Counted from the first letter of the stretch, positions 15,001 to 18,000 are shown. The stretch: 64,000 nt of DNA from Candidatus Krumholzibacteriia bacterium (GCA_041484665.1 JBGPIA010000001.1:608001-672000); one strand, 5' to 3'. Numbers: made by a program.

Positions 15001-18000
15001 GAACCAGGCCGCTCTGCTGCGCGCGGTGCACCGCGCGGGCGATCGACGAAGGCCCCTCCGCAGAGAGGGGCCTTCTGCTTGCGGCCACGGCATGCGAGCT
15101 GCGGGAGGAGTGCCAAGGTGACGGTGGCCCCGCCGGCGGACACGCCACGGCGAGCGAGGCGCGGGCGGGCGCAGCAGCGCAGCGCGCTGGGACTCAGGGG
15201 CCTCCGTAGACGATCGGCGGAAGCTGCAGCTGCTGCTGCGGCGTCAGGGTGACCTGCAGCTCCTTGGCACCCAGCACTTCGTGCCAGACGGCCAGCGTGT
15301 AGTCGCCCGGCGGCAGTCCGGTGAGGTGGAAGCTGCCGTCCTCGCCGGTCACGGTGAAGAATGGGTGCGCGATCACGCCGATCCAGGCCTTCATCCACGG
15401 GTGTACGTCGCAGACGACTGGAATCATCACCTCGGGGCGGTCGAAAGTGATGTCGCGGTTGCTGCCCTTGCTGGGAAGGGCCAGGTTGCGGTCCCGGTTG
15501 AGCGCGGGTTTGGCGTGGACGTTGTGCAGGATCTCATCACTGTTGAGGATCTTCAGCGGCTGCCCCACCTGCACCGCGACGATGCGCGGCGTGAACAAGC
15601 AGCCGGCCTGATCCAGCACCACCGGGTCCTTGCGCGGCTCGAACCGGAAACCCGCCAGCCCGTCCTTGATCCAGACCAGCGCTGAGGCGAGCTTCCCGTT
15701 CTTCACGCGGACCTTCTCCTCCACGGGCGGTTGCCCGTGCTGGTGGCCGCACCAGGCTTCGCTGCGCATGTTCACCGGCTGCTCCGCAGGCGGGGTGCCC
15801 GCCAACTCAACGACCCCCATGAGCGTCGCGACGGTCGCGGGATCCACGGTCTTGGCCTGCGTCGCGGGCTGGGTGGCGGCCGACGCGGCGGGCTGGCCGC
15901 CGGGTTGAGCGGCCGGCGTGCCGCCCGCCGGTCGCTGCTGCGTCGTACCGGACTGCTCGCCGGAGCAGCCCGCCGCCAGTGGCAGCGTGAGAAGCAGCAC
16001 CAGCAGGAGCGCGAGCCGACCCAGCCGATGCTGCGTCACGAGTCGAAGCGTCATGTCCCGGAAGCCTCCGGTTGTGCGGGTGTGGCGTATGCGGGGCAGC
16101 GATTCGCGGACGTACGCGCGCGGAGGTGCGCACGCGGGTACGTGGGTACGTAGACACGCAGGCGGCCCGGCGCAGACGATACACGGGCCGGCCGAGCTCC
16201 GCTACCGGGCACGGCCGCGGCGACTCGCCGTCCTGGCGCAGGGCCGGTGTGATCGGCTACAGTGCCCTGCAACCGATCGTTCCCCCCCGGCGGGGGTGCG
16301 CGTTCGGAAACCCCGGGGAGCGTTGCGCCCTGGGCAGCGACCGAGGGCCGACCTTGCCAGCGGGGATCATGCAGACCGCTCATCAGATCACACGCGACGA
16401 GCTCGTGGCGAAGCTGCGCGACCCCTCGCATCTCTTGCTGGACGTGCTCCCCCGTGAGTCCTTCGAGAGCAGCCACATCTTTGGCGCGGTGAGCCTGCCC
16501 CTGGCGGAGATCCCGTCGCGCGCACGTGCCGTCGCGCCCGATCTCGCGCGGCGGATCTCCGTCTACTGTGGCGGGCCGACCTGACCGCTGGGCGAGCGGG
16601 CCGTGGGCCTGCTGGGTGAGCTGGGATACCACGACGTGCGGCACTACGTGGGCGGCCTGGAGGATTGGACGAAGAGCAATCTTCCGCTGGAAGGGTCCCA
16701 TACCGTGGGGGCGCGCGCGGCCGGCGCCGGCGCGACACGACGAGCCGCGCCGGGAGTCCCCATGGCCAAGCTCCGGCGAGGGCTGCGCGGCGGCCGCTTC
16801 CTGGCCGTACTCACCGAGAGCTCGTTCGGCGGACTGTTCGGCCTGTGGATCCTCGTCGTCGCCGCCTTCGGGCTGCTGTACTGGCTGCTCGGGCTGTGGG
16901 GCGCCCCAGCGATGGCGCAGGCCGGTGCTCCGGTCCGATCGGATCTGCGCGGACTCGGCACCGCGATCTACTTCAGCTTCGTCACCGCCACCTCGGTCGG
17001 CTTCGGGGACGTGGTGCCGCTGGGACTGGGGCGTCTGGTCGCCGTCGTGGAGGCCGGTCTGGAGCTGCTGGTGTTCGGCTGCGTGGTCTCCAAGCTGGTG
17101 AGCAGCCGTCAAGAGCTGCTGACCGAGGAGATCCACCGCATTTCCTTCGAGGACCGCCTGGGTCGCGTGCGCACCAACCTCCACCTCGTCCTCTCGGAGC
17201 TGCAGGCCATCGCGCTGGCACGTGCGGCGGCCGCCAATGCGCCCGCCACCACGGGCGTCGCGCGCGCCGTGACCGCCGCCGCCACCAGCACCGCCCCCTC
17301 CGATCGCCTGTTGCCGCGCGTAGAAAGCCTGGCGATGGTCTTCCTCGGTGAGCTGCGCACCGTCCACGATCTGCTCTACCGCCCGCAGCAGCGTCCGGAC
17401 GATCAAGTTCTCGAGGGGTTGCTGGCAAGCGTCGCAGCGAACCTCCGCGAGCTGCGCGACCTCTCCGCATGGCTGCGCGAGTCCACCCAGGCTACGGCAA
17501 CCCTCAACGGGACCGCTGCGTCCATCGCGCGCCTCGCCGCGGAGATCTGCGGCGAGTGCACGCCGCGCCAGCACGTGCCCGAGGTGAAGTTGTGGATGGA
17601 CCGGATCCAGGAGATCGCCCAGCGGATCTCGTAAAAGGGCGATCGCCGGAACGCTGGCGTTGCGCCCGCGGTCGGGCGGAGCGCCGGGCGCCTACGCCTG
17701 TCGCAAGAGCTGCGCGATCGGCTCGCGCGAGGCCGACCAGGCTGGTGCGAAGCCGCCGATCACACCGGTGAGCACGGCGAGCAGGATCCCGCCCACCAGC
17801 ACGCCGGGCGTGGTGCGCAGCGAGAAACTGATCTCGCTGAAGGTCAGGAAGTTGGTGGTGCCGGTGGTATAGGCGTTCAGCGGCAGCGAGAGCACCGCTC
17901 CGACCGCACCGGCCAAGAGCCCGATCAGGGCCGCCTCCGTCACGAAGGCCCCCAGGATGCTGCGGCGACGGAAGCCCAGCGCGCGTAGCGTCCCGATCTC

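Follow-up and report, generated by a model that had tools for sequence, protein, structure and literature searches.

A predicted potassium channel with a C-x4-U rhodanese domain, encoded across an in-frame TGA in a Candidatus Krumholzibacteriia genome

The locus described here lies in a window of 64,000 nucleotides, the whole stretch of DNA that was analysed, from Candidatus Krumholzibacteriia bacterium (GCA_041484665.1 JBGPIA010000001.1:608001-672000). Two adjacent gene calls on the plus strand, g00483 and g00484, almost certainly represent a single gene (16369..17634) whose TGA is read through as selenocysteine (Sec). Inspection of the frame reveals an ATG at 16369, an in-frame TGA at 16582-16584 and no further in-frame stop before the TAA at 17632-17634. 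With TGA translated as U the product has 421 residues, an assignment based on the frame translation and on the position of the recoded site in relatives. The GTG at 16603, which opens a standard call of 343 aa, lies 18 nt beyond the TGA; both the single 421-residue protein and the 18-nt gap between the calls had been reported in the survey's finding and were recovered here. Contigs from four other runs cover the TGA site with identical letters and, together with the metagenome loci described below, rule out a sequencing error or local decay. Among 44 natural full-length relatives the recoded site falls at residue 66-95 (at 72 in 10 of them), for which reason ATG 16369 is favoured as the probable start codon. 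The GTG at 16249 is an unlikely start, as it would add 40 residues that have no counterpart in the relatives.

The gene is solitary, flanked by a minus-strand gene that diverges from it (start 16054) and by an ABC permease gene that converges on it (end near 17692). Pfam searches of nine neighbours in the window identified an ABC efflux set, two carboxypeptidase-regulatory-like proteins and one phospholipase D, and no sulfur- or selenium-linked genes among the nine. A conserved operon was considered and rejected, since the neighbour clusters reflect shared gene order inside lineages only; no neighbours common to different lineages, and thus pointing to a stimulus, were found in these clusters. 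No Rfam family was detected at the locus at gathering level, nor was a sigma-70 promoter matched there, and the protein gave no PADLOC match and passed the cut-off of no model in NCBIfam 20.0. DNA of the gene is present in sediment metagenomes; the same data-set search listed no RNA data sets that hold it.

Once the TGA is read through, the N-terminal part of the protein is described by a single rhodanese domain (residues 8-102; 16390..16674, plus strand; Pfam PF00581, E 1.3e-12), with positions 1-101 of the 102-position Pfam model covered. Comparison of the structural model of this domain with BH2092 3nhv gave Z 17.2 and rmsd 2.5 over 115 aligned residues. Eight Lys or Arg residues precede the first transmembrane helix and two lie between the helices, and because of this charge distribution both ends of the protein are predicted to be cytoplasmic, the rhodanese domain included. 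The active-site loop C67-G-G-P-T-U72 (16567..16584, plus strand) was placed by the TGA codon and by alignments to 6mxv and EanB. The motif had previously been given as C66-x5-U72, a numbering that must be corrected: the residues are Y66, C67 and U72, and the spacing is C67-x4-U72. In these alignments C67 falls at the catalytic Cys of classical rhodaneses, and it is kept in 129 of 129 full-length sequences. Five places past it both 6mxv and EanB have Arg, where this family has Sec, Cys, Ser or Gly. The basic residue five places behind the catalytic Cys holds the anion substrate in classical thiosulfate sulfurtransferases; here the catalytic Cys is present and the basic residue at +5 is absent. 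Sec or Cys in place of Arg fits a dithiol-type centre better than a thiosulfate transferase.

The rhodanese domain is followed by Ion_trans_2 (PF07885; E 3.4e-11, 43.3 bits against a cut-off of 22.5), which bears out the earlier proposal that a rhodanese is fused to a K+-type pore. All elements of the pore lie on the plus strand: transmembrane helix 1 (TM1, about residues 153-176; 16825..16896) is supported by the model helix H153-176 and by hydropathy, the pore helix and selectivity filter T206-A-T-S-V-G-F-G-D214 (16945..17010) by PF07885 and by profile matches that include KcsA and TRAAK, and transmembrane helix 2 (TM2, 17026..17100) by the model, in which one unbroken helix (H220-290) comprises both TM2 and the C-terminal domain's first helix. 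With TM1, a pore helix, a TxxSxG[YF]GD filter and a TM2 that extends into a cytoplasmic helix, the protein resembles the KcsA type, from which it differs by Ser at filter site 4, an N-terminal rhodanese and a C-terminal helical CxxC domain of 177 aa. The G[YF]GD motif is kept in 119 of 120 relatives, the exception being one pattern mis-hit. At the innermost position, site 4, Ser stands for Thr in 117 of the 120 and alters the TxxTxG[YF]GD signature; we take this position to be T75 of KcsA. According to the available part of PMC2759520, a Thr-to-Ser exchange at site 4 of Kcv (T63S) leaves K+ over Na+ selectivity unchanged, lessens barium block, destabilises the tetramer and alters permeability to Rb+, Li+ and Cs+. 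We consider it probable that the pore conducts K+. The full-length model (pLDDT 88.8, pTM 0.58) has a disordered linker at residues 112-136 and gives no relative placement of the domains.

The remainder of the protein is an all-helical cytoplasmic C-terminal domain (17101..17631, plus strand) that belongs to no named family. Its 177 residues were modelled as helices only (pLDDT 91.6, pTM 0.85); no Pfam family matched them, and Foldseek returned no match at E<=0.001. The best VIA match is a designed helical bundle (Z 11.8, rmsd 3.4, 147 aligned), which is in the generic-bundle range and is no proof of a new fold. The sequences collected with a profile of the domain form 211 clusters at 50% identity; the inspected ones are members of the same channel family. 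RCK/KTN domains have an alpha/beta fold, which sets them apart from this purely helical domain. Within it, the motif C394-G-E-C397 (17548..17559, plus strand) is invariant in all three sets compared (45/45, 68/68 and 129/129), and is thus better conserved than the Sec site, where 12 of the 129 sequences have Ser or Gly. Two further Cys columns of the C-terminal domain co-occur in 62 of 63 cases and are absent from the window's protein. An analogy can be drawn to the Kef systems (KefB/KefC), in which the thiol state of the cytoplasm controls K+ flux via a cytosolic domain (PMC10224563, available part). Kef, however, is a K+/H+ antiporter whose RCK/KTN domain binds glutathione adducts, whereas the protein described here is a predicted channel with putative covalent Cys/Sec centres and no RCK domain.

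To describe how the recoded site varies, relatives were collected from protein databases and from DNA. The database search yielded 1046 matches among 8000 scored candidates at E<=1e-3; the same number had been reported before for E<=1e-10. Among 119 listed relatives, 45 are full-length and 74 are short, and the short ones start behind residue 72 in 74 of 74 cases, in agreement with the claim that databases hold truncated forms; certain relatives start at TM1 with no rhodanese remnant, either naturally or through mis-calling. In the 45 full-length database relatives, site 72 is occupied by Cys (35) or Ser (10). At the DNA level, 85 loci were compared: 80 from metagenomes, two genome contigs and three genomes of the bacterium's own phylum, including that of the window. 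From at least 600 stretches, 365 were confirmed; the metagenome loci are the best 80 of these when ranked by likeness to the Sec-type query. With the metagenome part so chosen, which skews its TGA:Cys ratio toward TGA, TGA stands at site 72 in 81 of 85 loci, a Cys codon in 4 and TAA or TAG in none; within the metagenome best 80 of 365 the figures are 77 TGA, 3 Cys and none unclassified. An earlier metagenome tally had given TGA in 60 of 80 loci, with 16 unclassified. The site-67 codon encodes Cys in 85 of 85 loci. In the alignment of 129 full-length sequences, which leaves out L040, L054, L063, L081 and duplicates, site 72 is Sec in 74, Cys in 43, Ser in 11 and Gly in 1. Because Ser or Gly occupies this site in 12 of the 129, the second chalcogen is dispensable in some lineages. 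A quick tree of 121 rows, from which L040, L063, L081 and duplicates were omitted, has the Sec and Cys forms interleaved, and its well-supported branches require at least 9 changes. Three of the 208 genomes searched from the own phylum carry the family, and in samples of 401 and 301 other genomes it was found only in the centre genome.

A bacterial SECIS-type hairpin (16595..16613, plus strand) lies directly downstream of the TGA. In the window it comprises eight pairs with an apical loop GUG at +19..+21 after the UGA, and a six-pair stem (+12..+17 with +23..+28) with G at +19 is common to 74 distinct TGA loci. This geometry agrees with that of the bacterial SECIS element as described in the available part of PMC13188914, a stem-loop 16-37 nt past the UGA whose first two loop positions carry G. 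Across the 74 loci, 96.8% of 444 stem cells are paired, compared with 26-50% in slid controls, and 4 of the 444 are changed on both sides. All six stem pairs are formed in 63 of the 74 distinct TGA loci vs 1 of 4 Cys loci. Synonymous positions within the stem are fixed at 65/65, 62/62 and 28/28, vs 54%, 45% and 38% over the remainder of these genes, counts that treat related sequences as independent and are inflated by kin. Positions just outside the stem behave like the rest of the genes in two controls (29/71 and 41/74) and differ weakly in a third (53/68 vs 65%). The peptide across the stem matches [QR]Ax[GSRA]LL in 70 of 74 Sec forms vs 6 of 35 Cys forms. By itself the hairpin is unremarkable in a genome of 70% G+C (z -0.6 to -1.45), where 1874 of 20000 random TGA have a loose hairpin behind them, and for this reason it is the conservation of pairing and the synonymous constraint that make up the hairpin evidence.

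The genome of the window encodes SelA, SelB, tRNA-Sec and SelD, and its SelD gene has its own TGA with a hairpin in the same register. SelA, SelB and tRNA-Sec were found in three of four TGA-bearing genomes; the fourth, G209, has tRNA-Sec and a SelA in four pieces, and SelB was not found in it. All three components were found in G005, which carries a Cys form. A genome-wide screen for coding-like frames flanking a TGA and hairpin returned 11 sites, including that of g00483/g00484, and is incomplete in that it missed SelD. A TxxU peroxiredoxin and two UxxC proteins are among the other sites.

An in-frame UGA thus lies within a conserved frame, is kept in homologs and gives way to Cys in others, the pattern of a bacterial selenoprotein. 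On these comparative grounds, UGA72 is very probably decoded as selenocysteine via SelB bound to the hairpin directly downstream. The contrary reading, a true stop, with the gene either split or dead, or yielding two proteins through a restart at GTG 16603, can draw on the presence of that GTG 18 nt behind the TGA and on locus L063, where a second, unrelated TGA falls inside TM2. It would, however, cut the rhodanese fold inside its active-site loop, and it is at odds with TGA in 81 loci without a single TAA or TAG, with Cys in orthologs, with a restart GTG that occurs in only 18 of 74 loci, with the conserved hairpin, and with Sec at the same column in known selenoproteins. We regard a true stop as very improbable.

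Sec rhodaneses as such are known. The 2026 catalogue (Table 1 of PMC13188914) holds 119 prokaryotic selenoprotein families, among them five rhodanese forms and several transporters. For form 1 (PF00581), that table gives the representative WP_010941598.1; in the available part of the PMC12013277 supplements it has the loop YCGGVTU, and three members have YCGGPTU, letter for letter the loop of the window's protein. The C-x4-U active-site loop by which form 1 is recognised is accordingly present here. Form 1 proteins, read from the listed sequences in the part available, have several rhodanese repeats, no pore and an apparent export signal ahead, unlike the window's protein with its one cytoplasmic rhodanese, K+ pore and helical CxxC domain. 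A rhodanese is likewise joined to a membrane module in TsoB (NF045694, form 5, UxxxxU), whose loop Y-U-A-G-L-[TA]-U gave a gap-free alignment to Y-C-G-G-P-T-U in each of the six loci fetched. TsoB, reportedly described by Haft and Tolstoy in 2025, differs in having two Sec residues and a DsbD-like partner. Against model NF045694 the window's protein scores 30.6 bits, over the rhodanese part only, compared with a cut-off of 805. TsoB exceeds this cut-off in none of the 208 genomes of the own phylum and in 25 of 401 genomes of another phylum. A new Sec motif is rejected, given the same loop in form 1 members and U at both columns in TsoB.

The proposal of a sixth, channel-fused form of rhodanese selenoprotein accordingly stands for its architecture and falls for its Sec motif. 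That this would be the first selenoprotein ion channel agrees with the absence of any ion channel among the 119 families of Table 1 of PMC13188914. The words 'channel' and 'potassium' occur nowhere in the text of that paper, in the available part of PMC9312934, or in PMC12013277 with its four supplements. The catalogued Sec transport proteins, namely MerT-like proteins, a P-type ATPase, YeeE/YedE, SaoP, SO_0444 and a TonB-dependent receptor, likewise have predicted Sec and are membrane-borne; none of them is a pore-loop ion channel. Neither a rhodanese/K+ channel fusion nor a bacterial selenoprotein ion channel is described among the literature matches listed, a comparison outside which Haft and Tolstoy 2025 and Deng et al. 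2026 fall. A full-text literature search found no published CXXXXC disulfide in a rhodanese, and the available parts of PMC5877670 and PMC13510729 give no function for Sec rhodaneses. The Sec site was already known, and the architecture, a C-x4-U rhodanese with a K+-type pore and a CxxC domain, is well supported, new and uncatalogued.

A search with the C-terminal domain also identified a sister subfamily of 44 proteins, two of whose records name Thermoanaerobaculia. They share the three domains, have a degenerate filter and end in a peroxiredoxin. The rhodanese loop is C-x4-C in 43 of the 44, and the C-terminal pair is CxxC in 31, C-x3-C in one and missing in 12. Given the degenerate filter and the 12 proteins with no Cys pair, neither a K+ filter nor a relay is required for these domains to be retained. 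Inspection of the C-termini reveals that 32 of the 44 stop precisely at F[TS]GG, immediately ahead of the peroxidatic Cys, while eight continue through F[TS]GG-C and four end elsewhere. PxxxTxxU is a known Sec-peroxiredoxin motif (PMC13188914), and a TGA at the peroxidatic position of the 32 shortened proteins is therefore likely, as judged from their sequences. A viral-contig scan returned no DNA of this peroxiredoxin-fused subfamily. The same type of loop thus occurs in two redox settings, beside a DsbD-like module in TsoB and beside a peroxiredoxin in the sister subfamily.

We lean, with little more than even confidence, toward a K+ channel gated by thiol/selenol redox chemistry. In such a channel, KcsA-type two-helix subunits would form a presumed tetramer, each subunit bringing two cytoplasmic redox centres, the C67-x4-U72 loop and the C394-x-x-C397 pair, with the rhodanese loop serving as a dithiol-type redox centre and not as a thiosulfate transferase. 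Attack on the selenolate or C67 by an oxidant, a polysulfide or an electrophile would yield a selenenyl-sulfide or persulfide at C67/U72, to be handed on to the CxxC; and a change in the helical domain would pull the inner helix so that the gate opens or shuts. K+ flux would thereby track the thiol/sulfane-sulfur state of the cell. Sec would act as a faster substitute for Cys, a helper rather than a requirement, because Ser forms exist. The redox reading is backed by the invariance of C67, C394 and C397 (129/129) and by the model, in which TM2 runs unbroken into the first C-terminal helix. A more specific version, which we hold tentatively and at somewhat less than even confidence, is a selenoprotein channel that relays peroxide or sulfane sulfur from Sec72/C67 to the CxxC and on to pore opening; in the sister subfamily the pore would have become a filterless scaffold, with selenium moved to the peroxiredoxin and a three-centre thiol relay.

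Other readings accept the selenoprotein and assign the parts differently. The rhodanese may be a membrane-held enzyme, whether a sulfur/selenium carrier or a thiol-disulfide oxidoreductase, with the pore gated otherwise or serving partly as scaffold. The invariant canonical catalytic Cys and the long disordered linker of the model are compatible with such an enzyme, as is the sister subfamily, which keeps the C-x4-C rhodanese (43/44) and gains a peroxiredoxin as its filter decays. In the main family, however, filter, pore and CxxC residues are highly conserved alongside the rhodanese, and the loop is without the Arg of classical transferases, so that we judge the tethered enzyme unlikely, at perhaps one chance in several. 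Binding of soft metals or metalloids (Zn, Cu, Hg, As(III)) at the Cys/Sec sites, which would either gate the channel or make the CxxC a structural metal site, appears rather unlikely. The two extra Cys columns (62/63 together) would with the CxxC suffice for a four-Cys site, and most Sec-bearing transport proteins are linked to metal or metalloid resistance in the available part of PMC13188914; yet both extra Cys are absent from the window's protein, no recurring metal-resistance genes were recognised among the top neighbour clusters, and the peroxiredoxin fusion indicates peroxide/thiol chemistry.

A redox-linked pore that is not K+-selective, be it a general cation channel or a non-conducting sensor, is improbable. 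Ser for Thr at site 4 in 117 of 120 relatives and the degenerate filters of the sister subfamily speak for it, as do the destabilised tetramer and changed Rb+, Li+ and Cs+ permeability of Kcv T63S (PMC2759520, available part). The main family nevertheless retains G[YF]GD and the pore helix, and Kcv T63S remains selective for K+ over Na+ in the same part of that source.

If the redox-gated channel is real, it adds an ion channel to the selenoproteins, a class with none in the 2026 prokaryotic catalogue. Direct covalent redox gating would also gain a small model that can be expressed and that comes in natural Sec, Cys and Ser versions of a single site. Its ion current would provide a measurable read-out for the C-x4-U rhodanese module, long catalogued and uncharacterised. 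The database annotation is affected as well, as 74 of the 119 listed entries are held without the sensor domain and named plain potassium channels.

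Inspection of the family's relatives reveals a sister subfamily of 44 proteins (P0172, P0176 and P0267-P0308), where a rhodanese domain with a C-x4-C motif is followed by two helices with a degenerate filter, a helical domain as in the channel family and a C-terminal peroxiredoxin. Thirty-two of the 44 stop immediately ahead of the peroxidatic Cys, probably at a hidden Sec codon.

Domain content also varies among other relatives. In a single sequence, P0009 (634 aa), which carries Cys at site 72, a SAM-dependent methyltransferase precedes the rhodanese domain; this joint may represent a fusion or a chance read-through. 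Eight relatives (P0266, P0181, P0184, P0170, P0169, P0196, P0246 and P0249) start near TM1 with no rhodanese remnant, and P0266 also lacks the C-terminal CxxC. These proteins are either natural sensor-less forms or products of mis-called starts. Three further features are attributable to either decay or assembly errors: a second TGA in locus L063, within TM2 at a non-Cys position 160 codons past the Sec codon; a frame-shifted C-terminal end without the CxxC in locus L081; and a SelA gene split into four pieces in the TGA-bearing genome G209 (C31:12021-13121).

The family alignment presents three variable Cys columns, near residues 285, 358 and 368. Cys residues near 285 and 368 co-occur in 62 of 63 cases, and Cys near 358 is excluded where these are present (1 of 27). 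The window's protein lacks Cys at all three columns. An Ala/Thr-rich stretch (17227-17310) lengthens its C-terminal domain by ~18 residues relative to most relatives, and the model is less confident over this stretch.

Upstream of the channel gene are two facing genes with carboxypeptidase-regulatory-like domains (13088-16054), and downstream, on the opposite strand, is a four-gene MacB/FtsX-type ABC efflux set (17692-22243); no tie between the channel and these flanking genes was seen. Elsewhere in the same genome, five sites at C15:47701 (-), C4:50029 (-), C1:335895 (-), C12:553 (-) and C10 near 74967 (+) likely encode additional selenoproteins: one is a TxxU peroxiredoxin, one a protein whose C-G-U resembles the motif of UshA-like selenoproteins, two are of the UxxC type and the fifth is SelD.
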